Below are positions 41,399 through 60,694 of a DNA stretch of 64,000 nucleotides, piece by piece (position 1 is the first letter of the stretch; each line of letters begins with the position of its first letter). Both the position numbers and the translations under genes were made by a program. This DNA comes from a phage. Under the pieces are notes generated by a model. That model worked only from the letters and a program-made list of their open reading frames with translations, ran no database searches and was not told the origin of the DNA. The stretch lies in NCBI GenBank assembly GCA_029366385.1, contig GCA_029366385.1_4540.1; one strand, given 5' to 3'.

Positions 41399-41430
41399 AA
41401 AAGGGAACCTTTGCGGGTTCCCTTTTTTAT
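41399..41430. terminator. Strong bidirectional rho-independent terminator between convergent blocks
   Basis: Stem AAAGGGAACC / GGTTCCCTTT, then TTTTTT on + strand and A-run (T-run on - strand) on the other side. Confidence 0.6.
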
Positions 41431-44105
41431 TAGTCGTAATATTTCAAACCTGTAATGAACTTCGATCCCCAATCCGCACTTGCGGCGGTGAACGTCAACA
41501 TCCAAGTTGTAGCTGTACCAGTGAAGACCTCTCGTTGCACAGTACCATCAGTGTGGTAAATGTCCACGCCAGTATGTCCATTCTTAGGAATAGTGAAGGT
41601 AACAGCACTGGTAGTGTCTCGTGCATAAGAACAAACAAATGGTGTCCCCGCCCAAACTGGATTTGTCATATCACCCATCTCAAGCTGTGGAACCCAAGCA
41701 ATAAGACCTGCCGTACCATCTCCTGCAAAAGTGTCTGATCCACTTGCATTCAAAGCTATAATCTCATAGGTTATAGATGCTTGTTTGGCAACTGTCACTT
41801 TGTGTAGAATTACACGATACCAACCATTCCCCATATTGATTATGTTTGCATCTGCACCTGTAAATGTTCCAGCTACAAGATCATAAGTCCCTTCGTTAAT
41901 CTCATCTCCTGAAGTCAATTTGAGTTTCACTTTAGTGATCCCATCTGGCTTCAAGAATACGGATGCCGCCCAGTGCTTACCTGCTGTAATATCAGAAGCT
42001 GTATTCACTGCTGATAAAATATGTTGTCCTGAAGTTGTAGAAGGTGTTAACTTGTAAGTGTTAGCTGTAGTTCCAACCGGAGAGTTGATTGTTGATGCTG
42101 TGACTGTCAAGTTCGTCTTCAACCACGGGGAAGCTGTTGTCAAGTTATTGTTGATAAAGATATGTGTACGGTTGGCTGCTACAACACGTCTACCTTGTGG
42201 AGTTGTACCAACATATTCTAAAGGTGCTACGGGAGCAGAACTCTCTGTAGGTACAAGGATATCTCCAGAAGCCCTGGCATAACGGTTACTCCTGTTGACC
42301 TTTACATCCGCCGGAATAGTTTCTTGCGTCAAATCATAGTCCATCACAATCACCACAGCATTCACTGTGAGATAAGAACTATCTTCGGCAGTTACCACAC
42401 CTTGATAAGTTGCTCTACAACCGATACGACAACCTCCATCAGCAACCGCTGTAATAACGCCTGTAACGGGGTCAACTGTTGCTACCGTAGGGTCATTAGA
42501 GAAATACTCAACAACCATACCAGGTAAGCTTGCTGCTCCTGTTGGCGTTATTTCTGCTACCATTGTTTGTGTTGTTCCTACATCCATCGCAGATAAGCTA
42601 GGGGTGTAAACACTCAATGTTGAAGCATATCCTCCAGAGGTATCTGATAAAGTTGTTCCTTCAGCATTTAAGGCTGTCATACCTGCATCAAAACCACCTT
42701 CTGCATGGAAAGTCATTAAACCAGTAGATGATATTGTCATGTTTGCAGGGGCAGAAGAAGTGTATTTAATATTGAAAAGTTTACCTCCTTCTGGGCTAAC
42801 AGAATGTGTCAACTGTTTAGTTCCACCTACAATACAAATTCCTAAAGAATCTGTAGTTAAACCAGTTGCCAGAATATCACCCGTAATCACGGAGCTTGCT
42901 ATTGGTGTGAATTTATTATAGTTTAGACCACTATTGAACAGATACGAGGCTTTCCCATCTTTCCAAATACCGGAATAATACATATCTCCATTATAAACGA
43001 AAAAGGTTCCTTGATAACCTAATTGGTTAGTAACATCCATATTCAGCGTATGAACGCTTGTGAGCTTGTTTATATCCCAAGAACCCACTCCTTCAGGTTT
43101 AACTGGTTTTCCCACTTGAAGTGGATCTCCGCTCGCAGAATCATACCCCAAACCTAAGTTTGCAGTGTAGTTCTTACCAATAGCCCACAAGGAATTATTG
43201 ATCCCAACGAAAAAAGAGTGGCGGCTTGGTGGAAACTTCCATGTTGAGAAACCTGCTGCAAAGGTATCCAGTTTAGTGTAGGTTGTTTCTGTATTAGACC
43301 TAACATATAAGTAGTTTACTGTACCCGTGCCACCGGAGGTATCTCCTACAACTATTGTCTGGGAAACTGTATTGATGTAATCTTTGACATACACTGTTTC
43401 AGTAGCTGATATCTTGGCATTGACAAAAGCTGTTGTTGTGTTATTATTACCTGCTAAACCTTTACTGGCTCCACAAACACGCAAGGTTCCCGCATTATTG
43501 ACATAAGAGCATTGGTTGTAACCTGCATCAAAAGCAACTGCTGAACTTGTTATCTGACGAGGAGTAGAAACTTCGTTAGTAGTACTTGCACCTAAACTGC
43601 CTACTGTGTTTTGACCAGATCCGTAAAGAACACCACTATTCATTAACCAGAGAGTGTTGTTATATCCTCCCTTAACTTCTTTAAGATTGGCTAAAGAGAT
43701 AGTTCCCGTTATTACAGATGGAAAGCTGGTCCAAGTGGTTACACATGCATCCGTACCACCTGCTGCTATAGATCCTACTAATCCTGCTGTCAATCCTGAA
43801 TATTGCCATCCCCCACTGTTAGTTTTAATAACAAAACAACGATCTGCGGTAAACACATCCGCTACTACAGTAGAAGCCAAGTGGAAATTATTGAATCGTG
43901 CACTACGAGTTCCATCTGCAATCTCACCAAAAAGGTTTGCGCCTTGAGTAAACAATCTACCATCATTAAGCAAAATTGCTAAACTGCTGTTAGAATTACC
44001 AGCATTATCTGGGTAATCTAAAGTGATTACTTTTTTAACAATACCCGCTGGCAGAGGAACGACACCAGTGCTGGTCATAATAGTAAATATTGGAATTGGA
44101 AACAT
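41430..44105 (-). CDS. Tail fibre / receptor-binding protein with Ig-like (Big_2-type) segment
   Basis: 891 aa; Ser/Thr/Gly/Asn-rich; TTQTMVAEITPTGAAS..VEYFSNDPTVATVDPVTGVITAVADG resembles a bacterial Ig-like domain. Confidence 0.55.
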   Translation of the reverse strand: MFPIPIFTIMTSTGVVPLPAGIVKKVITLDYPDNAGNSNSSLAILLNDGRLFTQGANLFGEIADGTRSARFNNFHLASTVVADVFTADRCFVIKTNSGGWQYSGLTAGLVGSIAAGGTDACVTTWTSFPSVITGTISLANLKEVKGGYNNTLWLMNSGVLYGSGQNTVGSLGASTTNEVSTPRQITSSAVAFDAGYNQCSYVNNAGTLRVCGASKGLAGNNNTTTAFVNAKISATETVYVKDYINTVSQTIVVGDTSGGTGTVNYLYVRSNTETTYTKLDTFAAGFSTWKFPPSRHSFFVGINNSLWAIGKNYTANLGLGYDSASGDPLQVGKPVKPEGVGSWDINKLTSVHTLNMDVTNQLGYQGTFFVYNGDMYYSGIWKDGKASYLFNSGLNYNKFTPIASSVITGDILATGLTTDSLGICIVGGTKQLTHSVSPEGGKLFNIKYTSSAPANMTISSTGLMTFHAEGGFDAGMTALNAEGTTLSDTSGGYASTLSVYTPSLSAMDVGTTQTMVAEITPTGAASLPGMVVEYFSNDPTVATVDPVTGVITAVADGGCRIGCRATYQGVVTAEDSSYLTVNAVVIVMDYDLTQETIPADVKVNRSNRYARASGDILVPTESSAPVAPLEYVGTTPQGRRVVAANRTHIFINNNLTTASPWLKTNLTVTASTINSPVGTTANTYKLTPSTTSGQHILSAVNTASDITAGKHWAASVFLKPDGITKVKLKLTSGDEINEGTYDLVAGTFTGADANIINMGNGWYRVILHKVTVAKQASITYEIIALNASGSDTFAGDGTAGLIAWVPQLEMGDMTNPVWAGTPFVCSYARDTTSAVTFTIPKNGHTGVDIYHTDGTVQREVFTGTATTWMLTFTAASADWGSKFITGLKYYD

Positions 44106-44118
44106 TTAAACCCTCCAT

Positions 44119-44143
44119 AAAAAGAAAGCCCCTTTCGGGGCTT
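44119..44143 (-). terminator. Rho-independent terminator (GAAA loop on - strand)
   Basis: On - strand: stem AAGCCCC / GGGGCTT, loop GAAA, then TCTTTTT; follows stop of 44147-46171. Confidence 0.5.
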
Positions 44144-44146
44144 CTG

Positions 44147-46171
44147 TTATCGTGTTACAACAACCATGTCCACGATATCACCCACACCAGGATACGTTAA
44201 TTGCAAAATTGTTACTGCGTTAGCAGTAGTTGCTATTTCTGTATCATTTAGTGCTCCATAAGACGCATCTAGTGTAACCGTGTGTCCCGTTGTATCTTGA
44301 ATCAAATAAATCATTGCTGAAAACGCTTTAGGTTTTGTAGAGCCAGTGACACCAGGCCATGCTCCAACTGTCAGAGCGTCAGTTACTGTAACAACATACA
44401 TATTGGAAGTTCCAGAAGGAGTCCAAGATGCTCCAGAGTTGGCAGTAGTTGTTTCAAGTTCCATGAAACCTGCTGTAACTCTAGTTGGTGTTATAGCTTC
44501 CGTAGGATCTGATCCTGATATTTCGATCCAGTTTCCATCAGAACGACCATACGTCAAGCCGTCTTGAGGGGCTTCTGGTATACTAGGAAGAGTTCCTATA
44601 AGTGTCCACGTAGAAGAATCTGTTTTCTTAAACACTGCTCCAGTGGTAGTATTGAAGGCGTAATCATTGATAACACCGTCTCCTGCGACTGGATTAGTTG
44701 TTGCTACAAACCACTGTGCGCCGTCCTTACCGTTGGTCCCATCAGTACCGTTGGTTCCATTTGTTCCAGGATCACCCTTATCTCCTTTATCCCCTTTATC
44801 CCCTTTTTCACCTTTAATACTTCCCATGTCAACAAAAGATGCGGAATTGGTGTCCTGATCGTAAGTATAGATGTAAAGATTACTAGTGTCTTCAGTTAAG
44901 TAAGCATCACCATAGTTATTGTAAACAGGGAGAGCTTCACTGTTCGGAACATGACCTTTAGCTGTAATTGATGTTCCTCCAAGACTGCCAACATTCATCC
45001 ATTCCGTAGCATCTTGAACCCAAACATACAAATCATTATTAATTTTATATGCATCACCTACTTCTCCAGTAGGAGGAAGTTCAGCTTCACTGTTCAGAAC
45101 CCCGATAATCTCTAAGCCTGATCCTGTTGCACCCACTGGTCCTTGTGGACCTAGTTCACCTTGTGGACCTCGTTCTCCTTGATCACCCTTGTCTCCTTTT
45201 GGACCTTTAAGTGAGGCAATAAAATCTACCTCTGTCCCTTCATTACCAGCATCCAGCCAACTTTGATATGCAGATTTCCCTTCATCTCCATCTGTTCCAT
45301 CAAGACCGTCTTTACCTGCCTCACCTTGTGGACCTTGAGGACCAACAATATTACCCATGTTGACCCAAGCTGTCCCGTTAGAGACATAAAGATTACCATT
45401 GATAGAATAAGCTTGGCTTACGTTTTCAGAGTTAGGTTGTGGTAAGTTACTTGTAGAAGGCAAATCCCCACGATAATCAAAACCGTTGGCGTTAACACCA
45501 GGTGCTCCCTGTGGCCCTGTAGGACCAACATCGCCTTTATCACCTTTTATAGAGGTAAGAAAATCATAAACAGATCCTGTATTACCATCTGCCAACCATA
45601 CCTCGTAAGCTGATTTACCTTCTGGCCCAAGAGAAGAAATAAGTTTCCAAACAGAACCATCCCAAGCGTAGATTACATCACCTACGATATAACCATCCCC
45701 TGCAACGTTACCTGTAGATGGTAGTTCACTAGTGCTTGCTAATGATCCTTTAATATTAAGTTGAGCACCAGTATCCCCTTTCAAAGAAGCAAGCCATTGT
45801 GCTTCTGTTCCAACAAAACCATTATCAAGTGCGATCTGATAAGCCGATTTACCAGCTTCAGGTATTGTTTCCGACAGATCATCAATCTGTTGCTGCATTG
45901 CCGTAAATTTGGCATTGATAATTGCTATATCATCAGCGGTCCCAACACTTTGCCATGCAAGGGAAGAAATACCACCTGTGGTGGCTGGCGTAGAGTTTGC
46001 TGGAACTACTTTAGGAAAAGTTCCTTTCCATTGGTAATAATTCCCTTCTGCTGCTAACAGCAAAACTTCACGGGAATTACGTAATGTAAAACCTGCCTCA
46101 AAGCTGCGACGTTTTCGATAAGTAGCTTCTACCAGATCGGCTATCGCACTATTAGGTCTTGTTAAATTCAT
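44147..46171 (-). CDS. Tail fibre protein with collagen-like Gly-X-Y repeats
   Basis: 674 aa; runs such as GEKGDKGDKGDKGDPGTNGTNGTDGTNGKDG, KGPKGDKGDQGERGPQGELGPQGPVGATG, GPTGPQGAPG. Confidence 0.65.
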   Translation of the reverse strand: MNLTRPNSAIADLVEATYRKRRSFEAGFTLRNSREVLLLAAEGNYYQWKGTFPKVVPANSTPATTGGISSLAWQSVGTADDIAIINAKFTAMQQQIDDLSETIPEAGKSAYQIALDNGFVGTEAQWLASLKGDTGAQLNIKGSLASTSELPSTGNVAGDGYIVGDVIYAWDGSVWKLISSLGPEGKSAYEVWLADGNTGSVYDFLTSIKGDKGDVGPTGPQGAPGVNANGFDYRGDLPSTSNLPQPNSENVSQAYSINGNLYVSNGTAWVNMGNIVGPQGPQGEAGKDGLDGTDGDEGKSAYQSWLDAGNEGTEVDFIASLKGPKGDKGDQGERGPQGELGPQGPVGATGSGLEIIGVLNSEAELPPTGEVGDAYKINNDLYVWVQDATEWMNVGSLGGTSITAKGHVPNSEALPVYNNYGDAYLTEDTSNLYIYTYDQDTNSASFVDMGSIKGEKGDKGDKGDKGDPGTNGTNGTDGTNGKDGAQWFVATTNPVAGDGVINDYAFNTTTGAVFKKTDSSTWTLIGTLPSIPEAPQDGLTYGRSDGNWIEISGSDPTEAITPTRVTAGFMELETTTANSGASWTPSGTSNMYVVTVTDALTVGAWPGVTGSTKPKAFSAMIYLIQDTTGHTVTLDASYGALNDTEIATTANAVTILQLTYPGVGDIVDMVVVTR
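44777..44812. repeat. Short tandem DNA repeat (CCTTTATCC units) encoding KGDKGDKGD
   Basis: Visible on + strand as TATCTCCTTTATCCCCTTTATCCCCTTTTTCACC inside the collagen-like gene. Confidence 0.5.
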
Positions 46172-46207
46172 TTATCTCTCCTATCATTAGACCATTCTAT
46201 TGGAAGA

Positions 46208-46226
46208 AGAGGGGGAATCCCCCTCT
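46208..46226 (-). terminator. Stem-loop between tail genes (terminator-like)
   Basis: 8-bp stem AGAGGGGG / CCCCCTCT, 3-nt loop; shares the GAGGGGG/CCCCCTC core with hairpin 28356-28375. Confidence 0.35.
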
Positions 46227-46232
46227 ATTCCA

Positions 46233-49200
46233 TTAGGTTGTTGGCACATCTACTACTGGCGTTGGGCGAATAACCGCAGTATTACCTACAGAAACATTAC
46301 TGGAATCATTAGGTATGGTTTTAATTCTAACTCCAGCACTTGTAGGCGTTACAATTGGATCTGCAATGTCTATTTTAACTGGGTTAGTCCACGTATCATT
46401 ATCTTGATAAGGTGCACGAGTAATAACTGTGTCCAAATCTGCTCCACCTACGCCAGCACCAGGAATACGGATACGTGTCCCTGCTGACAGAGGGTAATGA
46501 TACAACCAAGAAGCATTTGTTGCTGTCCCGTTAGGAGTCAAGTTCTGTGTCAGGAAGGTATCTCCTGCCTGTGTAGCTCGAATACCGAAAGCTGGGATAT
46601 CTGGAATATATGCCCCACTTGTTGTTACAAGGAAGAACGTATTATCCGCCTTGACTATCATATCACCTTTGTCAAACTCTTTCCCTGTTGGGAAATGCAT
46701 TCCATCAATGTTTCGACTAGGATTAGGCTCTAAGTAATAAACTTTGCCCGTTGTCCCTACAATAGCTCCAATACCACCTGCGATATTGGTATACATATTA
46801 GCTTCAACATTACAGTTGACACGATGAATATCCGAGTAACGGCAACGGCTCCACTGTGGACGACCAGTAACCATCGTCTTGCCATCTGGGTAACAGTTTA
46901 CGTTAACCATTTCAAGAACAGATTTTTCTCTACGGAAGAATCCATCATAAAATGTTCCTGGACCAGATTCAGGTTGACCAACACAATCGAAGATATTACA
47001 GGTGATGTTAGACATTGAAAGCCAAGAAGCTATACCGAACAACTGCAATGCAGCGCAACGAATATTTTCAAAGCTAACTCTGTTTTCATAACCTGGCCCA
47101 GCGGAAACTCCCGCAAAAACACGCCCAGTTTTGGTGTGAATGTTACGAACAGAATAGTTAAAACATGGGTTTGAAGGTCTACCCTGTGCCGGAACTACCG
47201 GATTACCCTCTTCGTCCAGAACTGCGTTAGTTCCCCACTCCAAATAAATCATACGGATATTACTTGCAAGTGTGCTACCGTCTGTTTTAGGCTCTCCATA
47301 AACACCGTCAATCGTAAAATCTTTACTTCCATACATTACAACTGCGCCAGTTGCCAAACCTGTCCCAACAGATACGGTTTGATCTGGATCGCCATGAATG
47401 TTTTCGATAGAAATATTACGACCAACTTCTACGTGGACAATCTGACGGCAACGTTTTGCAAAAACGTTACGAATTGTAATATTCTTGCAATATTGATCAT
47501 CAGGGATTCCGTAACCATATGGTCCTTTACCAGCTACACCGATACCGATACCCCAGTTGGACAGAGGAATAGGAGCGTTAGTCCCATCGATATTAGACAG
47601 GTAAATATTCTCAATCACACAACCATCATCATAATGTTTATTGATGACGTTCAGTTCTATCGCATCACCTTGCATGTCCATGAAGGTAAGGTTACGGAAG
47701 ACACCGCGTGTTACTGGTTCTCCTGTCCCTTGTTGAAGGATGCCATATAACCCGTTTTTAAAAGTACAATTATCAATTTCAAAAGTACCTGATATTGGGT
47801 TGCCTTGGAATACCAAGCTACCAACTTGACCTGCGCGAGGAGCACCGTCCCACAAACAATCGAACATGCGCACAGCACCACCCCAATACATAACACGAGA
47901 GTTACGGAAAGTTGTGCCTTCTACTGTAGCATTTTGCACACGATAGTCGCGTTGACCACGGAACACACCCCCACGCAAAGTGATACCTTGAATATCAAAA
48001 GAGCTTGTCGTGAAAGTCATATCGCAACCGTAAGCATCGAGAATCTTGCTTTTCGAAGCTTTTGCTGCTAACAGTGCCGCTTGGAAAGCTGCTTCTGGTG
48101 TGGTATATGTTGTTGTGTTGTTAGCAAATTCTGATAAGTAGACAACATCGAATAAATCGTTGTATGTTCCACCACGAGGGGTTAACAGTCCTTCTGTATT
48201 GGTCAGAACCCATGCATTTGGACCTAATCCACCGCTTGTCTCCAATGTATCGGAGGCCAAAATACTTTTTGGTAAACTTCCAGCCCAACGATAACGACCA
48301 GCGCCACGTCCAATCGTCTGATTTTTAGCTGTCAGAGTTACATTATTACCAAAGCTTGTAGGCAAATGAACAAACTGTCCACGCTCAACAGCCAGTGCAG
48401 AAAGGTCTACAGATCCTCCAGAATAAGTCATTACTCCAGAAACAGACAAGGATGTTAAAGTTCCTGTGATGTTAGGAGGTAATGTGTAGGAAGACTGTGC
48501 TACCGGATCATACAGAGCTTTAATCCCTGTTAACGATTGACCTGCTGTTGCGTAAGCCACCTCATCATCTAACAAACCATACTTACGAGCAATAGTTTGC
48601 AGAGGGACTTTATCCATGCTTTCTGTTAGTTCTTCCGTTTTTGTTTCTAAACTAACAAGACGGTTCTCTAGATTAGGATCTGTATCTGCTGAAGCTACGA
48701 TTTTACCAATATAAGCAAAAAGCTTGTTTGGCAGTCCTGTTGCAGGATCGTGTCCCAAAGGTTCAGATAAGATGATCTTACTATCTTCTATACGGAAAGC
48801 TTCCCCCAGAACCTGAATAACACCATTGATCGTAACAATAGCACTATCAAAGATGTAAGGAGGACTAATTACTGTTTCATAACCAGTTGCACCAGAGTAT
48901 ACCCACGGGGTGACTTCTGTTGCTAATTGTTCTGTTTTCAGTCCCCACAATACCCAGTTGTTATCTCCTACTGGAGTCCCTTGCATAGGGATTGGGTTAA
49001 CCAATGTAGCGTTAGGAGCATAGTAATAACCGCTCAATACTCCATTCTGGAAATAACGAAGTTGGTTAAAAACTGTTTCGTTTGTGCCTTGCGCCCAATC
49101 CAATGGGCTTTTAAAGAAAAAGTTGTCAACAAGGGCTTTTCTCAGGGTTGGTATCAACCCTGATTCTGTTTCAATACTCTCTGTAGCACTTCCATTAATA

Positions 49201-49286
49201 ACATCATGGAGTTGGTTAGATGAGAAAATAACCAGATCTACGCCCTGTTCGAGAGACGTTGCTGGATATGTTGGGAATGTTGCCAT
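46233..49286 (-). CDS. Tailspike protein with parallel beta-helix (pectin-lyase-like) repeats
   Basis: 1017 aa; repetitive N-I-x-I/V-x-N coils (NITIRNVFAKRC, NISIENIHGD, NYSVRNIHTKTG, FENIRCAAL). Confidence 0.6.
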   Translation of the reverse strand: MATFPTYPATSLEQGVDLVIFSSNQLHDVINGSATESIETESGLIPTLRKALVDNFFFKSPLDWAQGTNETVFNQLRYFQNGVLSGYYYAPNATLVNPIPMQGTPVGDNNWVLWGLKTEQLATEVTPWVYSGATGYETVISPPYIFDSAIVTINGVIQVLGEAFRIEDSKIILSEPLGHDPATGLPNKLFAYIGKIVASADTDPNLENRLVSLETKTEELTESMDKVPLQTIARKYGLLDDEVAYATAGQSLTGIKALYDPVAQSSYTLPPNITGTLTSLSVSGVMTYSGGSVDLSALAVERGQFVHLPTSFGNNVTLTAKNQTIGRGAGRYRWAGSLPKSILASDTLETSGGLGPNAWVLTNTEGLLTPRGGTYNDLFDVVYLSEFANNTTTYTTPEAAFQAALLAAKASKSKILDAYGCDMTFTTSSFDIQGITLRGGVFRGQRDYRVQNATVEGTTFRNSRVMYWGGAVRMFDCLWDGAPRAGQVGSLVFQGNPISGTFEIDNCTFKNGLYGILQQGTGEPVTRGVFRNLTFMDMQGDAIELNVINKHYDDGCVIENIYLSNIDGTNAPIPLSNWGIGIGVAGKGPYGYGIPDDQYCKNITIRNVFAKRCRQIVHVEVGRNISIENIHGDPDQTVSVGTGLATGAVVMYGSKDFTIDGVYGEPKTDGSTLASNIRMIYLEWGTNAVLDEEGNPVVPAQGRPSNPCFNYSVRNIHTKTGRVFAGVSAGPGYENRVSFENIRCAALQLFGIASWLSMSNITCNIFDCVGQPESGPGTFYDGFFRREKSVLEMVNVNCYPDGKTMVTGRPQWSRCRYSDIHRVNCNVEANMYTNIAGGIGAIVGTTGKVYYLEPNPSRNIDGMHFPTGKEFDKGDMIVKADNTFFLVTTSGAYIPDIPAFGIRATQAGDTFLTQNLTPNGTATNASWLYHYPLSAGTRIRIPGAGVGGADLDTVITRAPYQDNDTWTNPVKIDIADPIVTPTSAGVRIKTIPNDSSNVSVGNTAVIRPTPVVDVPTT

Positions 49287-49289
49287 TAA

Positions 49290-49625
49290 TTACCCCTTAT
49301 TCTGTGTACGTTTAACTATGTCATCTAGCATCATTTGGATAGTCGCATTCTTGAGGTCCATAATCTTTTCAATTTTTTGCTCAAGGGTGTTATTATTTGC
49401 CATTAATGTAGAGTTAATTTGATTTAGCATCTGGGTAAGTTCTGCTTTAGTTGCATAAGTTGATTCAACAAAGACCAACTTCTTCTCTAGCTCTCGACTT
49501 TTCTCCTCCATTTCCTCAAGATCAGAGCCGAATTTATCCATTTTTTGTTTGAAAAAGAACCAGATGACTCCGATTAAAGGGATTATTGCATCCTTTGCAA
49601 GTCCCCATGCTTCTTGAAATTCCAT
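49290..49625 (-). CDS. Small protein with N-terminal TM segment and coiled-coil
   Basis: 111 aa; IIPLIGVIWFFF hydrophobic segment. Confidence 0.45.
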   Translation of the reverse strand: MEFQEAWGLAKDAIIPLIGVIWFFFKQKMDKFGSDLEEMEEKSRELEKKLVFVESTYATKAELTQMLNQINSTLMANNNTLEQKIEKIMDLKNATIQMMLDDIVKRTQNKG

Positions 49626-49634
49626 AGTGATCCC

Positions 49635-51883: not shown

Positions 51884-53371
51884 TTACACTCCATACTCGT
51901 AAGAAATGTTATCAAGGTCAAAAGAAGGGACAACATTATAAGCAGGAACTATATTATTCTCTGTATATTTACTGTCATCCTCAGTATTAAGTTTAACATA
52001 AACACGAAGAGAAGTCAAGCGTCCAAAAGCAAGTGCTGCATAAATAACACCTTTGATTTGATCGTTCGTTACTGAAGAACCTAACTCAAAGTAAGCTTGC
52101 AGGTTTTGTAAAGCTTCTACGATGTTTTGTTTTTCTGTTCCACTTAAAGTTGTTCCGTTGACAGTTTGATAAACAAGTTTTACGGAATACATAGCAGAAG
52201 CACCAGGGGAGAAGCGAATAATTTCCTGTCTTCCATCTTCTGTTGTAACTGTTATGTTAGTTGTTCCGTGTGTCAAAGTGTTGATTGGTTTGGTTTTATA
52301 GATAACATTTGCAATTTCTTCTGCACTGCCACCATAAACTATAGTCTGGAAAGTCATAGCTGGAGCATGTTCTTGATCATGTAATGTAGGGTTATCATAA
52401 ATCTTCACCTTAGTAACACCATCTGTAAGCAACAGAGCTTTTACAATAGCTGCTCGTGTCCCTGCGTTAGCTTCATCAACGTTGTCATTAAAACGAGAGC
52501 GGAATTCTGCGTCTGTCTCAACATCTCGACCAGGAGAAAATGAATAGAAGTTACCACTGTCAAGATAACCTGTAAAGGTAGAAGATATCCCTGTAATAGA
52601 CTCGACACCAACAGGATTGTATCCTTTCTCTGCTGCAACTACCGGAATCTCACTCCACTTGGTTCCAACCGGAACACTAGCATAAAATTTAATAGGAGTT
52701 ACCAGCCCCACTGGAGTATCACTGGTTAAAGAAGTAAAACCAATTGATAAGTTACCTGAATCAGAAAATACAAGACTACGATCAGCTTCTGTTAAATTCG
52801 CCTTGATAAAAGTTTCAAGATCGGCTATAAATGTAGAAGAACCAGGTGCAAGTGTTTTACTGTTTAATCCTCCGTCTACCGCACTTTGTGCATAAAAAGT
52901 AATATTTGGAACACCTGTAGCAGTTGCATTAGCACGAGAGATTTGATAAGCTGCAATCTTAGCATTCAACATAGTTGGTGTGCTAACATAGTAGTTCATA
53001 TCACTGTCAGAGTTGAAGTAAATATCCGTGCCTAGCTCGTAAGTCCAAGCTGCTTTGTTATTACTTTTAACATATGCATAACCTGTACTTGCTGCCGCCC
53101 CTGCTCGATAGAAACCACGTTTAGAAAAGATTTCATCAAGATAAATACCTTCTGCACCATCCAGTGTTTGAGTATTATAAACCCCTTGCATACCTTCCCA
53201 CAATGTGTAATCTGTGTATGCAATTATTCTAAACAGTTGTCCGATCACAGTATCTTCCGAAGTGGCTGCATCTGCACCAAATGTGTTTTTTACTGCTGTC
53301 ATGTAGTTGTTTAAAACATCGTCAAAAGTCGGGATTACAAATCCCGCATCTGTCAAACCATATTCGTCCAT
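51884..53371 (-). CDS. Baseplate J-like (wedge) protein
   Basis: 495 aa; N-terminal region TLDGAEGIYLDEIFSKRGFYRAGAAASTGYAYV resembles Baseplate_J family. Confidence 0.5.
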   Translation of the reverse strand: MDEYGLTDAGFVIPTFDDVLNNYMTAVKNTFGADAATSEDTVIGQLFRIIAYTDYTLWEGMQGVYNTQTLDGAEGIYLDEIFSKRGFYRAGAAASTGYAYVKSNNKAAWTYELGTDIYFNSDSDMNYYVSTPTMLNAKIAAYQISRANATATGVPNITFYAQSAVDGGLNSKTLAPGSSTFIADLETFIKANLTEADRSLVFSDSGNLSIGFTSLTSDTPVGLVTPIKFYASVPVGTKWSEIPVVAAEKGYNPVGVESITGISSTFTGYLDSGNFYSFSPGRDVETDAEFRSRFNDNVDEANAGTRAAIVKALLLTDGVTKVKIYDNPTLHDQEHAPAMTFQTIVYGGSAEEIANVIYKTKPINTLTHGTTNITVTTEDGRQEIIRFSPGASAMYSVKLVYQTVNGTTLSGTEKQNIVEALQNLQAYFELGSSVTNDQIKGVIYAALAFGRLTSLRVYVKLNTEDDSKYTENNIVPAYNVVPSFDLDNISYEYGV

Positions 53372-53613
53372 TAGTCATCCTCTTTGGTAGATTGTGATCT
53401 GCCCCAGCGTAAATCAATAAGATTTTTCATGAGGCGAGAAGGAGTTATCATGAAAACAAAAGCCCAACCCATCCATTCAGGAATTTCTTTTTCTATTCCT
53501 AAAAAGATAAACATGCCTGTCATGGTTAGCATTCCCAGTGCGTTCCACACTTTAGTAGAACTGATTTTGTTGTTTGGATAAGTACAAAACATTCCGATTA
53601 AAAACTTTCTCAT
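53371..53613 (-). CDS. Small membrane protein
   Basis: 80 aa, two hydrophobic segments. Confidence 0.35.
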   Translation of the reverse strand: MRKFLIGMFCTYPNNKISSTKVWNALGMLTMTGMFIFLGIEKEIPEWMGWAFVFMITPSRLMKNLIDLRWGRSQSTKEDD

Positions 53614-53918
53614 GGTGCGTTCTCATTACTTTTTAAATCACGATATACAGCTAATTCCCCAAGGTCTACAGAACCCGCTGAATGCACAAGTACATCAGCA
53701 CTAAGACTAATGGCAGTAATACCTGGGGCAATATCAGCAGGTAGGGAATACGCCCTTTGCGTCTCCTTATCATAGATAACCTTATACCCACCCAAATCCA
53801 CACCAACTGAGAAGTAAACAACCTCAGATTGTTTAACTCCAAAGTAACGGGCTACTGCTTGTTTATTGGTTAAGATTCCGGTTGAACCTTTACCACCTTG
53901 GGAGAACATTTCGTTCAT
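53610..53918 (-). CDS. Hypothetical structural protein
   Basis: 102-aa ORF. Confidence 0.45.
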   Translation of the reverse strand: MNEMFSQGGKGSTGILTNKQAVARYFGVKQSEVVYFSVGVDLGGYKVIYDKETQRAYSLPADIAPGITAISLSADVLVHSAGSVDLGELAVYRDLKSNENAP

Positions 53919-53970
53919 AACAACCTCTTTGTTTTTCTAAGTAATGCCCCCTACAAAGAGGGGCTAAGTA

Positions 53971-55647
53971 TTATGAATGTAACCTAACATCAGCCGATAC
54001 AATGGAAGAAGCAAGGGGAACTAACGTACCATTACTATTGTAGAAACGTAAAACTAAGTTACGACCAACAACCTCTGGTAGACACACAAACCCTGCCGTT
54101 GATGCTGGGGTTACAGTACAGTTCCGGACCGCATTAGTAGTAACGTGATTTTTGAATACAACAGTAATCTCACCAGTACCGGTATCAGTAACAGAACTGA
54201 ATAGTGAGTTGCTATCTGTTATGGTGATATTTCCGTTGTTGTTCACAATACGACCGAATCGTTCCCAGTTAACGGTAAGGTTAGTTACATTATCCAGCCC
54301 AAAGAACATAGTATCTCTAGGGGTATCTATGTTCAGCACTGATATATCAGAGCAAGTTCCCTGAAATCGCAAGAATGGTTGGGTAACACTACCAGCGTTT
54401 ATCGTATCAGTGACCCCATCAATGGTTAATTGTGAGCAGGAGCCTAGCAATATTGGTGTAGACGCACCGTTACCTGCTATTTTAATGTTCTCGATACGTG
54501 AACGCTGACAACTCAGGGATATCGGGATTAAGCCATTGGTCGTAGCCGTAACTCCTGATTTAGTTTGCATATCAAAGGAGACACCACTAATCAGGAGGTT
54601 GTTAAGAAGAGAACTATCAGCAGGTGTACCACTAATACCATAGACAGTGTCGCTTCCATACTGGAGAACTTGCAAATGCCCATTCTTTATTTGAGTATCT
54701 CTAACTTCTCCGTCATCAGTGTTTAGTGCTACACCACCGTTACCACCTTGCAGCAGGAACCCATCTACCAATACTCGCTTACTATGGCGAATATTAATAA
54801 ACCACATATTACGGTCATCGACGCCTGAATAGCGACCTATAATATTTTTTGCAATAATATCCTCACAGTACGAACCATCTGACTGTACTACGGACACATA
54901 CAGAGCATGGCGACCTAAGTCTCCCTTTGCCTGGTCAGCCTCAAAATTAATACCGTCAATGAGAACTCTCTTACACCCGCCAAGAAGAACTCCATACCCG
55001 CCAGCAACAACATCAGAATGGTATCTATTACCTCTAGAATGCACATCCCTAACAACTGAGTCTGCAACTCTTGTTAGCTGCACGGAGCCTGTATAGCCAA
55101 ATGTATTAATACCAATCATTGAAATATCTGAGCAGTCATTAGCATTAACAGCATACGCCACATTACCCCCAGTTGTAGGGGCATTCACAATTAAACCAGA
55201 AACACGTATATCTCTTACTTTAACTCCGTTCTTTCCATTAATATTCACAGCTTGCGTTTTTGTAGTATTGGAGACTAAACCGCCTACCCCTTGAATTACT
55301 TGGTAGTCAGCCACAGGCGATATTACTGTTGCGATATTAATATCTTTTGCAATCTGCACATCCTGACCATTCGATAGAACTGTTTGGATATTATTGGAAT
55401 ACCCATCAGGACGACGGTCGATAGCATCTAAATCTTCCTGTAAAGTCCCCCGGTGGTTAGTGCCGATAATGGATAAACCTGAATCTGCTCCATCTGTATC
55501 TTTCAACTGGGTGGCTAAAACCACCCCAGTGTCAGTAAGAAAGTTGGAAACTGTGCTTTTAACAGTCTTATCAGGTTGGTCTAAAACCAGGTAATCAGAA
55601 CCATTAACTTTTGATGTTTCGGGTAAATTAGTAATTGTAGTTGACAT
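53971..55647 (-). CDS. Tailspike protein (beta-helix)
   Basis: 558 aa; beta-helix-like repeats (VKVRDIRVSGLIVNAP, ISMIGINTFGYTG, LIDGINFEAD, FINIRHSKRVLVDGFLLQGG). Confidence 0.5.
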   Translation of the reverse strand: MSTTITNLPETSKVNGSDYLVLDQPDKTVKSTVSNFLTDTGVVLATQLKDTDGADSGLSIIGTNHRGTLQEDLDAIDRRPDGYSNNIQTVLSNGQDVQIAKDINIATVISPVADYQVIQGVGGLVSNTTKTQAVNINGKNGVKVRDIRVSGLIVNAPTTGGNVAYAVNANDCSDISMIGINTFGYTGSVQLTRVADSVVRDVHSRGNRYHSDVVAGGYGVLLGGCKRVLIDGINFEADQAKGDLGRHALYVSVVQSDGSYCEDIIAKNIIGRYSGVDDRNMWFINIRHSKRVLVDGFLLQGGNGGVALNTDDGEVRDTQIKNGHLQVLQYGSDTVYGISGTPADSSLLNNLLISGVSFDMQTKSGVTATTNGLIPISLSCQRSRIENIKIAGNGASTPILLGSCSQLTIDGVTDTINAGSVTQPFLRFQGTCSDISVLNIDTPRDTMFFGLDNVTNLTVNWERFGRIVNNNGNITITDSNSLFSSVTDTGTGEITVVFKNHVTTNAVRNCTVTPASTAGFVCLPEVVGRNLVLRFYNSNGTLVPLASSIVSADVRLHS

Positions 55648-55655
55648 TTTTACTC

Positions 55656-57809
55656 CTATATATAAAATTTTTGTGTTGTTACTAAATCTTCTCCAGATTT
55701 AGTAGCTAATGTAATTCCACTTATGGTGGCAATCTCAACATTTACCTGTTTAAGAGTGATATCCTGTAAATAAGCGTTCAAAGGCACGTTACCCATATAG
55801 AAAACTTGGGATTGAGAATTAACTACCGTGATAGAATCGTGCATTATTTGAGGATAGGCCCATATATATTGTGTAAGTCCATTGAACTTATTGGCGTTCA
55901 ACACTATGTTACCTATAATCATTTTCCAAAGATACGTGCGGTAGTTTGATTCAGGATCAAAACCATACAAAGGTGCAAGAGTAGCATCTGGAACAAAACC
56001 TGCAAGATAGTGAATATCAGAATATTCAAAACCTAATTTTTCATGTGGTATGGTAATTGCATCAAATGCTTTCATCATTTTACCTTCCAGAAGCCAGTCG
56101 TAACACTCTGAACAATAAAAATCAAAAGCTTCAGGAATGTAGTAATCAGACGGAAAGTTAACTTTCTCCATCAAACCGTTGCCGATAATTGATGGTAAGA
56201 ACGGAAGCAATGTTACCTTGGCTCCTGGGTAAGTTGCTCTAGTATCTGTTGCAAACTTTGTAACTCTTAATCCTAGTTTACGAGACAAAAATGCATAGTA
56301 TTCGTCAAACGGCGTTCCTGTTTTATAATTATCTATTGTTCCTGCATCTTGTGCAAATAAACCTGTTTCTGTGTTGAATGCCAGTTTGGTAGTGTAATCA
56401 TATATGCAAGGCATTTTACTTGCTGTATTATACCACCACCAAGGCTCACCAATTTGAATGACAACTGGAATATTATTAGCTTGCGAAATAGATGCTATTT
56501 TATTAATAACATTTTGCAAATATTCCATACCTTCGTCAATAGTTGGAGACAACACATAACTAGGAGGTTCATACCCTGTTGCTGCAAGAGCATCGTTCCA
56601 ATCATGCTGGACCCATTCTACAGGACAAACTGTGCTCATCAATTCAAAACTTAAAGAGTTCATTATTGTGTAGCCCTTCTCGTTTGCTATAGAATGGAAG
56701 CTGTTAAGCCAAGCTTCTGTAGCCGGATTCAGGAAAACAGATTTATTTAAAGCCCAAGATGTTCCATTCCATGAGAACTCATAATAGTGAGACATTCCGT
56801 TATAATGGTTAATCATCCCACGATAACCTAGTGCATATGTATTATAAATAACTCTCTCTGGAGTCAGGTTATACATATCATCATAAGATGTGCACATGCG
56901 AATATCATGTTCAGGCTGGACAAGGTTGCTGACTTTCATCATACTGTAACCAGAAGTAGGTTCAAGAAGAATGAAAGTAAACCAAGCCTCTTGACTGGCA
57001 ATAGGTACAATCTCTTCTATTTCTTCATACCTTGCTGTAATCAAAGAGAAGAAAATATTATCTACAGCACTCATATCCAAAGGAATATCATTATTAGGGC
57101 CAGAAAAGATATTACCAAAATCTAACTTGATTGTGGCTGTTTTACCATCTTCTGAAATATCTGAAGCGTAGAATCCTAAACTGACATAATGAACACTTTT
57201 ATCCAGGAGAGTTACAGTCAAAGTCGGCACCAAAGGTTCTTCTTTAAAACCTGGCATGTTTTGACTAATTTCCATTTTAAACCAAAGTTTCTCTGAACTT
57301 AAATCTGTGTGAGGCAAATACCCAACACCTTTATGGTCATATTTGTCAACTGTGCTCCAGATAACCCCTGCCAAACCTGCTGTTGTTCTGTTTACAAATC
57401 TTGCAGTAAAAGAGTCTCCATGAGATACAATAGAACAACTTTCCGTTGCTTGAGAATCTATTGTCCAATACATAGGAGAGAACATTTTAACGTCTTTTGT
57501 AGTCCAAGTTATTGGAGTAGTATTTTCTTGGATAGTAGTTATAATACAATTGATGGTTGTTTCAACCATCATGTTATTTTGACTAATCCCTGAAACTTGG
57601 AGGGAGAAGTTAAGATCTATTGAGTTCTTTGGTCGTTCAAATACTTCAACCACAATAGTAGCAGAATCAGCATCATCAGGGAACACAAGTGTTCCCGATT
57701 TTGCAATATAATCTCTACCAGCGACTGCTGTTCCGTCAACAGTCGTGTAGTTAAATGAACTCGCATTTACTCTCTTGTCTCGCGTGACAGTAAATATAGC
57801 TTGTTTCAT
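55656..57809 (-). CDS. Large tail-associated protein, aromatic-rich (possible carbohydrate-active domain)
   Basis: 717 aa; no motif assigned. Confidence 0.45.
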   Translation of the reverse strand: MKQAIFTVTRDKRVNASSFNYTTVDGTAVAGRDYIAKSGTLVFPDDADSATIVVEVFERPKNSIDLNFSLQVSGISQNNMMVETTINCIITTIQENTTPITWTTKDVKMFSPMYWTIDSQATESCSIVSHGDSFTARFVNRTTAGLAGVIWSTVDKYDHKGVGYLPHTDLSSEKLWFKMEISQNMPGFKEEPLVPTLTVTLLDKSVHYVSLGFYASDISEDGKTATIKLDFGNIFSGPNNDIPLDMSAVDNIFFSLITARYEEIEEIVPIASQEAWFTFILLEPTSGYSMMKVSNLVQPEHDIRMCTSYDDMYNLTPERVIYNTYALGYRGMINHYNGMSHYYEFSWNGTSWALNKSVFLNPATEAWLNSFHSIANEKGYTIMNSLSFELMSTVCPVEWVQHDWNDALAATGYEPPSYVLSPTIDEGMEYLQNVINKIASISQANNIPVVIQIGEPWWWYNTASKMPCIYDYTTKLAFNTETGLFAQDAGTIDNYKTGTPFDEYYAFLSRKLGLRVTKFATDTRATYPGAKVTLLPFLPSIIGNGLMEKVNFPSDYYIPEAFDFYCSECYDWLLEGKMMKAFDAITIPHEKLGFEYSDIHYLAGFVPDATLAPLYGFDPESNYRTYLWKMIIGNIVLNANKFNGLTQYIWAYPQIMHDSITVVNSQSQVFYMGNVPLNAYLQDITLKQVNVEIATISGITLATKSGEDLVTTQKFYI

Positions 57810-57817
57810 TTTACCCC

Positions 57818-60694
57818 TTACTCGGTAACGTCCACACTAATGTTTGCCATTGTCAAAACAGTAAGTGCAGGAATATTGCTCGAATCCAAAACAGGTAATG
57901 CATTTTGGGGATTAAGTTTTTTGTATAAAGCATACAACCCAAAACCACGTAACAACTCTCCAGCGTGGAAGCCAAAGAAGACTCCGTTATCACTATCTGG
58001 TCTAGGAGCAGCACTCCAACAACCATTCATAACGTGATTAGGACCAAGAACAATATAGTTTTCCTGAATAAGTTCAAAACAGCGGTCTGCTACTATTTTA
58101 ATGTTAGGAATTTCTGAATCATATCCAGCCATCCCCATTATAGCACATCCCGCCATAAAGAGCGCAGACATGTGACTTGTAAAGTCATCTACAGGCGCAG
58201 CCACTTCTCCATTGGGATAAAATATTGTTGGTGTTCTTCCTTCGTTGTTATCTTGGAACCACTTCAGGTAGTTGATCCAGTTTTTACAAACTGTTAAAAG
58301 TTTTTCAGGAACTTCGGCTCCTCGTCGCTTTAGTTCGTATACCGTATGACACGCACAGAAGAATGCTCGTGCTTCATAACCATCCCAAGCTTTATCGTTC
58401 CAATGATACATTGTGAACTCATTTTTGTTTCCATATTTATGAGCATCCCAACGATCCCAAACATAAGCTTGTGCCATTGGCCCAGGCATTACAGGGGCAA
58501 ACTTATTATAAAACCACATTTGTGAATCATATAAAAAGTCTATACTGTTGTTCATACGAACCCAGTCAATATCTCTCCCTTTAAAACAATATAAGGATGG
58601 GTATTGATAACCTGGGTAAGGAATACCACGCCAACCGTCATATAATGCTGTGTTAGGATCACTAATATTGGAAAATGGAATGATTCCTGGAGTATAATTC
58701 AAACTGTCAAGTTTGTAGTCCAGTATTGTACAATCTCCAAGTTTTGCTGTATAAGGATTTTCAGATGAAACTGTAACCCTGAAATACATTGTGTAATCAT
58801 CACCAGCGGCTGAAGAATACAAAGATGGGATATCGTTAACGCAATAAAAGTCGATTGCCCCTGTCAAGCCATTTGCAGGTTCAGAATCCAATGCAATGTT
58901 CATCTGATCAACAGCAGTCAAGTTTATTGACGAAGGTTTTGTCTCTGTGTCATTGTGATTAGGTTGCCAAGTACTTAATTTGAAATCAGCAGGACTTAAA
59001 GCTTTAGTAACCCATGCAGAATTTGTTTTTTCTAACATGGCCCACCATCTCCAACCTGCGGAATCCGTAATAGTGATGTTAAAATCATCTGCGTATGAAC
59101 GATACGTAATAGATTTTAAATTGGTTGTTTTAGTTGGTGTTAACCAAAACCCAATAGTAAAACCACCATCTGAATCCATATTAGCAGAAACTATCTGATC
59201 ACTATTTGTCCCAGCAATACCAGTTGCATATTTATATTGTATCACAGTATTGCTTCCCCAGTCAACAATGATTCTAGGTTCAGCAATAATATATACACCA
59301 CCTCCAGGAGGTTCAGTGCGCATAAAACTGGATAAAGGTATATCCATCTTAGTCATATTAGCTGCACCAAGAGGTAAGCCACAACGATATGTCACTGTGT
59401 CTGTTTCACTCTTAGTCTTGCTTAATTCTAACTCTGGACGGAAAAGAACACCTTCCCCTGCATCATCTACGCCTTGAAACTCAATACGCAGTTTTGAATT
59501 CTGATCCACTCTGAACCAAACTGCCTGTTGTTCTAGAGTTGTTTGTGCTGAAACATCTTGGCGAATTACTGTGTATCCTAATTCGTCACGAGAATATTTA
59601 GGTGTTGCTGTAGATGGGTATGAGTAATCATACGAGATACCATCTGTAAAAGGAATTATTGCTGTCGTAGATCTACGGAAGAATTTATCAAACATATCAA
59701 TGTTTGAGTAGTCTTGACACAACAATAAAGAAGATTGCCAGCAAAGCCAGTATTTTCTCTCTCCTGTGATCTGATACATCAAGTAGTTTGCATCACACCA
59801 CCACGTTTCAGCATCGGAAGCATTATCTTGATAGCCTAACTCTACCGGAACGTTTACAGGACGGTTATGCCACATCTCATTACGCTTAAGCAGATATCCA
59901 CCGTGTTCTACAGGATTGCATGTAGCGTAGTTGAATTTATAGTCCCCGTTCACAGAAGCATTTTTAAGTTGCACTGTTCCATATTCTGCAAAGCTATGAC
60001 CAGTAGATAAAATGTTACCATCCCAATCAACTTTACGTCCTAGACGGTCTATAATCCATTCAACGTCCCACTGATCTCCATATTCTTTCCAGTTGGTTGA
60101 ACCATCTGGGTTAGTTGCATAAACTGTTGCGTTAACGGAGTTCCAACCAAGATTGCCATTGAAAGCAAACCAAGCTTTATCTAAGTATTCCCCCCAATGC
60201 GGTGCACCTTTAGGAATAACAGTCCTTCCGTTAATCCAAGTCATCATGCTACCTTTGAACCCGCCGTGCGTAGGATACCCATCATCTGTGAGAGGGTAAT
60301 GTGCTAAACGTGGTTCTTTACCATTGATGATCCAGTTGGGACGATATTTAGCTGGAGGATCAGGAATAGGTTGGCCCCCGAAGAAGTGATCTATGTAGGC
60401 TTGCCAATACTTCTCGGCAGATTCAAGATATTTTTTATCCCCTGTAGCCAAATATGCATAAGCAAAACCAGTGATAAGCACAGATTGACCTTCGGTAGTA
60501 GCGTCACCGTTTGGTTGCCCTTCCTGCGCTGTCCAGTTAATAAAGTGTCTGTTGTTCGCCAATACGTTTTGTGGGTTGATAATGTAATGCTGAACCGTAG
60601 GATCTATGGTAAGCCCAGTATTTCTTTCCAAAAACTGAACCAACCCTTCAATCAACTGAAACGTGTTGTCAATATTGTGCTTAACTTTTGACAT
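57818..60694 (-). CDS. Large tail-associated protein, possible glycoside-hydrolase-like receptor-binding protein
   Basis: 958 aa; Trp/Tyr-rich; function inferred from context only. Confidence 0.45.
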   Translation of the reverse strand: MSKVKHNIDNTFQLIEGLVQFLERNTGLTIDPTVQHYIINPQNVLANNRHFINWTAQEGQPNGDATTEGQSVLITGFAYAYLATGDKKYLESAEKYWQAYIDHFFGGQPIPDPPAKYRPNWIINGKEPRLAHYPLTDDGYPTHGGFKGSMMTWINGRTVIPKGAPHWGEYLDKAWFAFNGNLGWNSVNATVYATNPDGSTNWKEYGDQWDVEWIIDRLGRKVDWDGNILSTGHSFAEYGTVQLKNASVNGDYKFNYATCNPVEHGGYLLKRNEMWHNRPVNVPVELGYQDNASDAETWWCDANYLMYQITGERKYWLCWQSSLLLCQDYSNIDMFDKFFRRSTTAIIPFTDGISYDYSYPSTATPKYSRDELGYTVIRQDVSAQTTLEQQAVWFRVDQNSKLRIEFQGVDDAGEGVLFRPELELSKTKSETDTVTYRCGLPLGAANMTKMDIPLSSFMRTEPPGGGVYIIAEPRIIVDWGSNTVIQYKYATGIAGTNSDQIVSANMDSDGGFTIGFWLTPTKTTNLKSITYRSYADDFNITITDSAGWRWWAMLEKTNSAWVTKALSPADFKLSTWQPNHNDTETKPSSINLTAVDQMNIALDSEPANGLTGAIDFYCVNDIPSLYSSAAGDDYTMYFRVTVSSENPYTAKLGDCTILDYKLDSLNYTPGIIPFSNISDPNTALYDGWRGIPYPGYQYPSLYCFKGRDIDWVRMNNSIDFLYDSQMWFYNKFAPVMPGPMAQAYVWDRWDAHKYGNKNEFTMYHWNDKAWDGYEARAFFCACHTVYELKRRGAEVPEKLLTVCKNWINYLKWFQDNNEGRTPTIFYPNGEVAAPVDDFTSHMSALFMAGCAIMGMAGYDSEIPNIKIVADRCFELIQENYIVLGPNHVMNGCWSAAPRPDSDNGVFFGFHAGELLRGFGLYALYKKLNPQNALPVLDSSNIPALTVLTMANISVDVTE

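Follow-up and report, generated by a model that had tools for sequence, protein, structure and literature searches.

A predicted phi92-type multivalent adsorption apparatus in the distal tail module of a phAPEC8-like phage

We have analysed a 64,000-nucleotide stretch of phage DNA (NCBI GenBank assembly GCA_029366385.1, contig GCA_029366385.1_4540.1; hereafter the window), the minus strand of which carries, between positions 41430 and 61167, an unbroken run of late genes that are tightly packed or overlap one another. An initial annotation had singled out in the interval 41430-60694 at least seven large tail-associated proteins, and had read them as an unusually large and branched set of receptor-binding proteins. 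All seven open reading frames (ORFs) are found on the minus strand at the sizes given, and the homologues of every named ORF are so strong that chance ORFs are excluded. A megablast search with the interval returned 221 phage records, of which 62 span 80% or more of it, with identities of 95-99% in almost all cases; the top-listed records that were checked belong to Phapecoctavirus (phAPEC8, Ro121c4YLVW, ESCO13, Schickermooser and others). The block is 98% identical at the DNA level to Phapecoctavirus genomes over about 90% of the interval, and its large genes are all intact and 94-100% conserved across the genus. We consider it about 85% probable that this is the distal part of the tail gene block of a Phapecoctavirus, a phAPEC8-like E. 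coli myovirus of the Stephanstirmvirinae, and that it encodes a multivalent adsorption apparatus of the phi92 type.

The block is collinear, gene for gene, with the annotated regions of Ro121c4YLVW, phAPEC8 and BME3 and of ALITA, a member of the sister genus Justusliebigvirus to which phi92 also belongs, in the order hub, spike, sheath initiator, gp140-143, wedge, short fibre and Tfa, gp150 and gp151. Proteins are named here by their length in amino acids (aa), and all of their genes lie on the minus strand. The wedge protein p495 (51884-53371) is gpJ-like, has a Pfam Baseplate_J domain and matches PDB 21vq_h at E 4.7e-266, and p209 (51252-51881) is gpI-like, falls in DUF2612 and matches 21vq_D at E 5.9e-121. 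These matches to Phi92_gp145 and gp146 fix the phi92 numbering gp140-gp151, so that p157, p958 and p717 are the equivalents of gp140, gp141 and gp142, p558 occupies the gp143 slot, p495 and p209 are gp145 and gp146, p353 and p181 are gp147 and gp148, p111 is gp149, and p1017 and p674 are gp150 and gp151. In phi92, fibres I and III dock on gp145, which is present in two copies per wedge (PMC13450770). The text of that paper gives one gp145 and two gp146 per wedge, while its figure legend and PDB 21vq indicate the reverse, the PDB entry having two gp145 chains (495 aa) and one gp146 chain (209 aa). Neither p495 nor p209 is a receptor-binding protein. These genuine wedge proteins were absent from the initial list, and the concern that several of its ORFs might be baseplate or sheath components was not borne out. 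As a receptor-binding block the interval does hold the seven proteins listed, but p495, p209, the small membrane proteins p111 and p80 and an ORF of 102 aa are encoded there too; an eighth fibre-like gene, that of p157, begins at 60694, the last base of the range first delimited.

On phi92, three co-assembled sets of six fibres have been resolved by cryo-electron microscopy. The L-shaped fibre I ends in the gp143 endosialidase, and fibre II branches off at its base; fibre III, which is gp147, points downward and changes orientation when the tail contracts. The gp150 protein is an enzyme that degrades colanic acid (PMC13450770). In the BASEL papers the large orthologous loci of Vequintavirinae and of phages like phAPEC8 and phi92 are likened to a 'Swiss army knife'. 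These phages are tied there to a wecB-dependent glycan, first read as enterobacterial common antigen (ECA) and later as the N4 glycan receptor (NGR), and the lipopolysaccharide (LPS) core is given as their terminal receptor. Several proteins of the window have also been named in a 2025 paper: TfpL (958 aa), TfpM1 (891 aa), TfpS1 (353 aa) and TfpS3 (157 aa) (PMC12695924). The branched apparatus with several specificities put forward in the initial annotation is therefore the published model of the lineage, the block being collinear with phi92 gp140-gp151. The description of the set as unusually large holds against ordinary phages but not within the lineage, since the apparatus is already described for this phage group and such a gene set is normal for Stephanstirmvirinae and Vequintavirinae. 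Schwarzer et al. are said, in papers that cite them, to have called phi92 itself a 'nanosized Swiss army knife' in 2012. A broad host range, also raised as a possibility, agrees with the behaviour of the Phapecoctavirus relatives AV125 and AV126, which infected 84/198 and 65/198 strains and had the broadest host range among 28 coliphages (PMC10844046); the host range of the window phage may likewise be broad.

Modular exchange is evident at the gp143 slot, occupied by p558 (53971-55647). Codons 1-55 of this gene (55482-55647) form an invariant slot anchor, and 53951-55481, including a spacer, constitutes an exchangeable cassette. The first ~55 aa are identical in nine different slot tailspikes, from nine genomes of both Stephanstirmvirinae genera, with complete divergence beyond them. 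The match of the DNA to other Phapecoctavirus genomes stops precisely at 55482 and returns at 53950 or inside the gene for p80. Alleles of 558, 762, 921 (endosialidase-like), 745, 849 (GDSL), 618 and 804 aa are seen in the slot; Schickermooser and ESCO13 have no occupant in it. In empty-slot genomes the end of p717 is altered, which was considered as the mark of a docking site and rejected as uninformative, since the change is simply the deletion junction. Neither a PDB sequence search nor Pfam gave a match for p558; because PDB sequence searches were empty for both p558 and p958, the folds of these two proteins were taken from AlphaFold2 models. The p558 model has a mean confidence (pLDDT) of 86.3 and is confident from residue ~80, and its best structural matches in Foldseek are the tailspikes of Sf6, Det7, HK620, LKA1 and P22, at probability 1.00 and E 3e-9 to 1e-6. 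These five tailspikes cleave O-antigen. As modelled, in monomeric form, p558 is a right-handed beta-helix tailspike of the P22/Sf6/HK620 type and a putative depolymerase. Residues R79, D96, Y218, R246, H247, Y250, R287 and others are invariant in its alignment.

The body of p558 recurs at 30-82% identity behind other anchors, namely those of the T7 tail fibre, the P22 head-binding domain and Tail_spike_N (PF03906, PF09008 and PF18668), and its homologues are found in prophages and phages of Enterobacter, Cronobacter, Kosakonia and E. coli. It is a horizontally traded cassette, predicted to be polysaccharide-specific and to be the main strain-specific determinant of host range. Among 50,697 INPHARED phage records the same allele is present only in 'Campylobacter phage B15' (97.5%). 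This record is filed under Phapecoctavirus and marked UNVERIFIED, and it is one of more than 20 INPHARED 'Campylobacter phage' records with the host given as C. jejuni that match these tail genes (including MG065650, which is B15, MG065655, MG065646 and MG065689). Their identities are typical of the coliphage genera Phapecoctavirus, Justusliebigvirus and Vequintavirus, and the host label looks doubtful.

The second tailspike, p1017 (46233-49286), is the orthologue of phi92 gp150 and has a composite layout, with a slot-specific anchor at residues 1-215, N-terminal domains of the CBA120/G7C tailspike type at residues 226-370 and a beta-helix body at residues ~426-1000. Residues 426-1000 match the crystal structure of phi92 gp150 (6e0v, E 1.4e-79), the N-domains match those of CBA120 TSP1/3/4 and 4qnl (E ~1e-26 to 1e-30), and the protein falls in PHROG 6117, 'colanic acid degradation', at E 1e-282. 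It is 100% conserved in eight Phapecoctavirus genomes, and between genera only residues 1-215 are retained, at 75% identity, with the body at 33% to Justusliebigvirus. On sequence grounds, p1017 is predicted to be a depolymerase of the colanic-acid type; hydrolysis of colanic acid at the beta-1,4 Glc-Fuc linkage is reported for phi92 gp150 alone. Of the 'two or three' beta-helix tailspikes first proposed, two are thus identified, p1017 through 6e0v and p558 through its model; a third was sought and not found. Downstream of p1017, p674 (44147-46171; gp151 orthologue) is a collagen-like fibre, as had been proposed, with a Pfam Collagen match (E 3e-12), four G-X-Y runs of 6-11 triplets and KSAY...KG repeats. 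It begins with a Tail_spike_N domain (residues 12-77, E 1.3e-19) and ends in a knob (residues 560-671) resembling the tail fibre 9cuy_g, and it is 94-100% identical within the genus and 60% identical to the ALITA orthologue.

A search for shared N-terminal anchors, suggested in the initial annotation, uncovered three kinds. The N-terminus of p157 resembles the 55-aa anchor of p558 (local alignment z 6.0; matched by 0/500 shuffles), and Tail_spike_N (PF18668) occurs both in p674 and in p1017, where it covers residues 302-361 (E 2.3e-9). The third is p102 (53610-53918), which corresponds to the first N-terminal docking domain of G7C gp63.1 and CBA120-type tailspikes standing alone; it is 43% identical to p1017 residues 230-302, and its identity to the start of complete tailspikes of Gamaleyavirus and Kuttervirus reaches 88%. 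The gene for p102 overlaps the start of that for p80 by 4 nt, has exactly 102 codons in both Stephanstirmvirinae genera, and is not present in phAPEC8, 3A1 and Schickermooser; its product could be a cap, an adaptor or a relic. Pfam scans of all 18 proteins of the module detected no branching domain of the T4 gp10-like/XD type, for which no structural search was made.

The short fibre and its chaperone were correctly recognised from the outset. p353 (50181-51242; gp147 orthologue, the fibre III protein) is a short tail fibre of the Mu/P2 type that belongs to PHROG 4465, has no Pfam match and resembles the short tail fibre 9cuy_c at its C-terminus (E 6.9e-23). Directly downstream, with a gap of 0 nt, follows p181 (49635-50180), the Tfa chaperone, identified through Caudo_TAP (PF02413, E 1.5e-13, 51.4 bits against a cut-off of 22.1) and PHROG 136. 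The tip of p353 (residues 275-353) and Tfa are replaced together in B15 and ukendt, a segment that corresponds to 49635-50421 of the window, and Tfa identity there drops to 27%. For this short fibre the BASEL data report a requirement for LPS core and homology to Mu GpS/GpU, and by analogy p353 is probably the terminal binder of LPS core. At the other end of the block, p157 (60694-61167; gp140 orthologue) is a mini-fibre with an anchor-like N-terminus and a C-terminal knob that falls in PHROG 9017/7760, 'tail fiber protein', and has no match in Pfam or in a PDB sequence search. phi92 gp140 is listed as a fibre-like candidate (PMC13450770), and the rV5 orthologue of p157, gp43, is found in virions (PMC3606486). 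A 233-aa gene labelled 'tail fiber protein' lies beyond the window end, upstream of the plug and hub genes (locus L001, 27345-28046); from its similar size it is probably the TfpS2 of PMC12695924, and as it takes the place of the phi92 tube initiator gp135, a role as a fibre is improbable.

The last gene of the block encodes p891 (41430-44105), in which an RCC1-like beta-propeller (residues ~40-390; Pfam WD40_RLD/RCC1) is followed by Ig-like domains (Big_2, residues ~400-590, E 2.7e-9), in keeping with its first description, and by a swappable C-terminal domain (residues ~585-891). Its N-terminal 195 aa are common to rV5 gp27, and residues 1-607 make up a stand-alone protein in Seunavirus. The C-terminal third (41430-42354) is replaced in B15 and divergent in ZCKP1, and is also found in the 'carbohydrate esterase' protein of Justusliebigvirus, a genus that has no p891 orthologue (PMC12695924). 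p891 is not a classical trimeric fibre, and is probably a lateral adhesin.

Between the gp143 slot and p157 lie the two proteins that had been noted for their aromatic content, and their content of Phe, Trp and Tyr is indeed high, at 13.2% for p717 and 13.9% for p958 against 5.4-9.6% for the other large tail proteins. p717 (55656-57809; gp142 orthologue) combines a Calx-beta domain (E 7.9e-11), NCTSP_N (E 5.9e-16) and TIM-barrel_NCTSP (E 3.2e-79), scoring 266.9 bits to PF23845 and 58.7 bits to PF23844 with a cut-off of 27 for each. Its PDB matches are N4 gp64 (9lc0_M, E 2.5e-30) and N4 gp65 (E 1.4e-12), and its identity is 99% within the genus, 76% to Justusliebigvirus and 43% to rV5 gp34. A poly-GlcNAc-deacetylase-like domain (where GlcNAc is N-acetylglucosamine) is reported in BASEL S5F to be common to N4 Gp64 and a conserved lateral fibre, a homology that corresponds to the one seen here for p717. 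We predict that p717 binds or processes glycan, and it is a candidate binder of the NGR/ECA-type glycan. The label 'non-contractile tail sheath' attached to this family raised the possibility of a sheath component, which we rejected: the name derives from N4 gp65, which is the N4 receptor-binding protein, and in this lineage the gene for the contractile sheath lies elsewhere. The virion here is that of a myovirus, contractile and with a sheath of its own, so the name applies to N4 and does not say where p717 is located.

p958 (57818-60694; gp141 orthologue) had no match in a PDB sequence search or in Pfam, and a fold search of BFVD gave only 'tail fiber' labels. In the AlphaFold2 model it is predicted to form an (alpha/alpha)6 barrel of glycoside-hydrolase (GH) type, like GH8, GH76, GH88 and GH105, with inserted beta-sandwich domains. 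Many Asp, Glu, Trp and Tyr residues are invariant across an alignment of 52 diverse sequences, which suggests that a sugar-binding cleft has been maintained; the invariant acidic residues include D64, D172, D294, E296, D336, E388, D544, D750 and E913. The family is found in 534 phage records, from Vequintavirus, the jumbo phages 121Q and SPN3US, 7-11, Rosemountvirus, Vibrio phages and others. Within the genus p958 is 99% conserved, and it is 72-73% identical to its Seunavirus counterparts (loci L002 and L003), in which hub, spike and wedge are at 26-47%; such a difference from its neighbours may reflect either strong constraint or recent lateral transfer of the p958 gene alone. Two natural fusions are informative. 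In a P2-like prophage (locus L013, 8001-11294), right after V-W-J, a gpI moiety (residues 6-142) continues into a p958-like one (182-1082), and in an SU10-like podovirus (locus L014, 6691-11364) p958-like (13-960) and p717-like (968-1543) segments form one chain of 1557 aa. These fusions indicate that p958, p717 and gpI are physically tied together, and p958 is probably attached to the baseplate wedge, as a wedge-proximal protein rather than a distal, strain-specific receptor-binding protein. Its rV5 orthologue gp42 (35% identity) was also detected in virions (PMC3606486).

Neither gp141 nor gp142 is mentioned in the 2026 phi92 paper, where fibre II and the arm of fibre I have no assigned protein (PMC13450770). 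It is tempting, although doubtful at present, to suppose that proteins of the gp141/gp142 type, which are enzyme-like and globular, form the arm of the L-shaped fibre I at its proximal end, the short and thick fibre II, or both. If so, the p958/p717 pair may be a mobile, two-enzyme 'glycan arm' mounted on the wedge protein gpI in myoviruses, this arm may share its ancestry with the 'non-contractile sheath' of podoviruses like N4 and SU10, and the 55-aa tailspike anchor, perhaps together with p102, may plug into it.

The remaining features of the block are small. p111 (49290-49625; gp149 position, PHROG 15210), between the Tfa gene and the gp150-like tailspike, is labelled 'lipoprotein' in RefSeq relatives and in PHROGs, yet it has no cysteine and therefore no lipobox; its sequence suggests a transmembrane helix at the N-terminus with a coiled coil after it, that is, a small membrane-anchored protein and not a receptor-binding one. 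p80 (53371-53613) is a small two-helix membrane protein of the tail module that carries a membrane-protein label in relatives. A terminator-like hairpin with an 11-bp stem and a T-run (41399-41426, minus strand) ends the late block after p891, and another, with a GC-rich 8-bp stem and a T-run (44125-44144, minus strand), separates p674 from p891. Both coincide with terminators annotated in relatives (phAPEC8 and Schickermooser), and they alone were retained from a promoter and terminator scan that overall did not rise above chance (15 terminators against 13.3 expected).

Several observations weigh against reading the block as a set of seven or eight co-displayed receptor-binding proteins. The three fibre densities seen per phi92 wedge mean that seven genes do not amount to seven independent appendages, and gp140, gp150 and gp151 could not be placed in fibre II (PMC13450770). 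Co-assembly of several fibres and spikes is known only from phi92 cryo-electron microscopy and rV5 proteomics, and the display of all eight proteins on one virion is argued by analogy. For every protein we infer whether it is an active enzyme, on which substrate it acts, whether it is a trimer and where it sits on the virion. With a body only ~33% identical to that of Justusliebigvirus, p1017 is not assured of colanidase specificity. p958 is more conserved than a typical receptor-binding protein, and the orthologue of p717 is not among the rV5 virion proteins given in the main text of PMC3606486. For p891, a likeness to 6tb9, the head-spike fibre of RcGTA, extends over residues 615-831 (E 5.9e-14). 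Proteins with Ig domains often decorate capsids. An alternative, which we regard as unlikely, is that p891 decorates the capsid, the neck or the virion in general, as a Hoc-like Ig adhesin encoded by chance at the end of a tail operon. Besides its Big_2 domains and the likeness to 6tb9, a match to PHROG 215 (category head and packaging; 'structural protein with Ig domain'), its terminator-flanked transcription unit and its lack of a counterpart in Justusliebigvirus would fit such a role. Its best PHROG is nevertheless 11922, 'tail protein', the ~195 aa that it has in common with rV5 gp27 belong to a gene that BASEL counts as the final large one for a lateral tail fibre, phages swap the C-terminal third of p891 as they do receptor-binding tips, and in both Phapecoctavirus and Seunavirus it always stands at the end of the fibre cluster; all of this argues against such a decoration.

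A more serious, though still less probable, competitor to the multivalent apparatus holds that p958 and p717 are scaffold of the baseplate periphery, an arm that holds the exchangeable tailspike and has kept enzyme-like folds but has no receptor specificity of its own, which would leave ~4-5 specificities rather than 7-8. The conservation of p958 relative to the flanking baseplate proteins, the fusion of its module to gpI, the position of its gene directly after those of the sheath initiator and p157, and the need of the L-shaped phi92 fibre I for an arm (PMC13450770) are all what a scaffold would predict. On the other hand, the invariant acidic and aromatic residues of the barrel suggest a maintained sugar-binding cleft; moreover the p958 module moves between myo-, podo- and jumbo phages, as is typical of a host-interaction module and not of a lineage scaffold, and the p717 family is genetically linked to dependence on the ECA/NGR glycan in N4 and its relatives. 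That the gene set is partly redundant or vestigial, with p102, p157 or p674 left as relics of cassette exchange that are no longer assembled, appears very improbable. p102 is indeed a docking domain with no body that several genomes lack, and the tailspike slot can be empty, but the large genes have stayed intact throughout the genus, p102 keeps its exact length in both genera, with its translation coupled to that of the gene that follows, and orthologues of p157 and p958 occur in rV5 virions (PMC3606486).

Under our preferred reading, that of a phi92-type multivalent apparatus, a P2/Mu-like wedge built of two p495 and one p209 would carry several co-expressed appendages that act in turn. The conserved glycan-directed proteins p1017, p674, p891 and p958/p717, among which we group the p157 mini-fibre, would bind reversibly and carry the virion through exopolysaccharide layers common to many enterobacteria. 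Of these, the p958/p717 pair probably sits on the wedge, where it would bind or process a conserved enterobacterial glycan of the NGR/ECA type and may form an arm on which other spikes are mounted. The cassette spike p558 would add one strain-specific O- or K-antigen to this repertoire. Finally p353, folded with the help of Tfa p181, would make the last contact, probably with LPS core, and trigger the wedge and contraction.

Such an apparatus would explain why phAPEC8-like phages rank among the coliphages of broadest host range, which makes them attractive for therapy and biocontrol. The block also marks where host range can be re-engineered, at the slot with its universal 55-residue anchor and at the short-fibre tip, which is exchangeable together with Tfa. 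Beyond what is known of the lineage, our analysis offers a candidate identity for the phi92-type fibre densities that have no assigned protein, and points to the enzyme-like 958/717 pair as a widely travelling module.

Among the closest known systems is that of phi92. From the hub to the last fibre the two phages agree in gene order and have orthologous wedge proteins (E 1e-266 and 1e-121), and both have the short fibre with Tfa, a gp150-type tailspike, the collagen-like gp151, orthologues of gp141 and gp142 (76-83% identity to Justusliebigvirus ALITA) and an identical 55-aa anchor in the gp143 slot. They differ in the occupant of the slot, a 558-aa beta-helix spike here and an endosialidase in phi92, in the body of the gp150 orthologue, at ~33% identity, and in the additional 891-aa RCC1/Ig protein of the window phage, in place of which Justusliebigvirus has a carbohydrate-esterase protein sharing the Ig and C-terminal parts of p891. 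phAPEC8 and the other Phapecoctavirus genomes Ro121c4YLVW, ESCO13, AV125/AV126 and B15 show 98% DNA identity and 94-100% for the conserved fibre genes; the slot allele, however, is common only to the B15 record, which in turn differs in the short-fibre tip, Tfa and the p891 C-terminal allele.

Likeness to the branched tailspike clusters of CBA120 (TSP1-4; Ackermannviridae) and G7C (gp63.1/gp66) lies in the predicted co-display of several tailspikes, in the docking domains (Tail_spike_N and D1-like) that recur in p1017, p674 and p102, and in the modular exchange of receptor-binding bodies. In contrast to those clusters, the apparatus described here has no gp10-like/XD branching domain by Pfam, is built on a P2/Mu-like wedge, and adds fibres and non-spike enzyme-like proteins. 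With N4 gp65/gp64 (PDB 9lc0 and 9yf4), p717 shares the NCTSP_N and TIM-barrel domains and membership of a family genetically linked to recognition of the wecB-dependent glycan NGR. N4, however, is a podovirus in which these proteins surround the tail tube, whereas p717 belongs to a myovirus baseplate module and is a single chain with an added Calx-beta domain and without the gp65-like C-terminal domains that bind NfrA. Finally, p353 and p181 adjoin each other as do gpH/gpG of P2 and gpS/gpU of Mu, with a Caudo_TAP-type Tfa, joint exchange of tip and chaperone, and predicted attachment of the fibre to a gpJ/gpI-type wedge; the P2 or Mu fibre, however, is the sole receptor-binding protein of its phage, whereas p353 is short, at 353 aa, and is one of many appendages.

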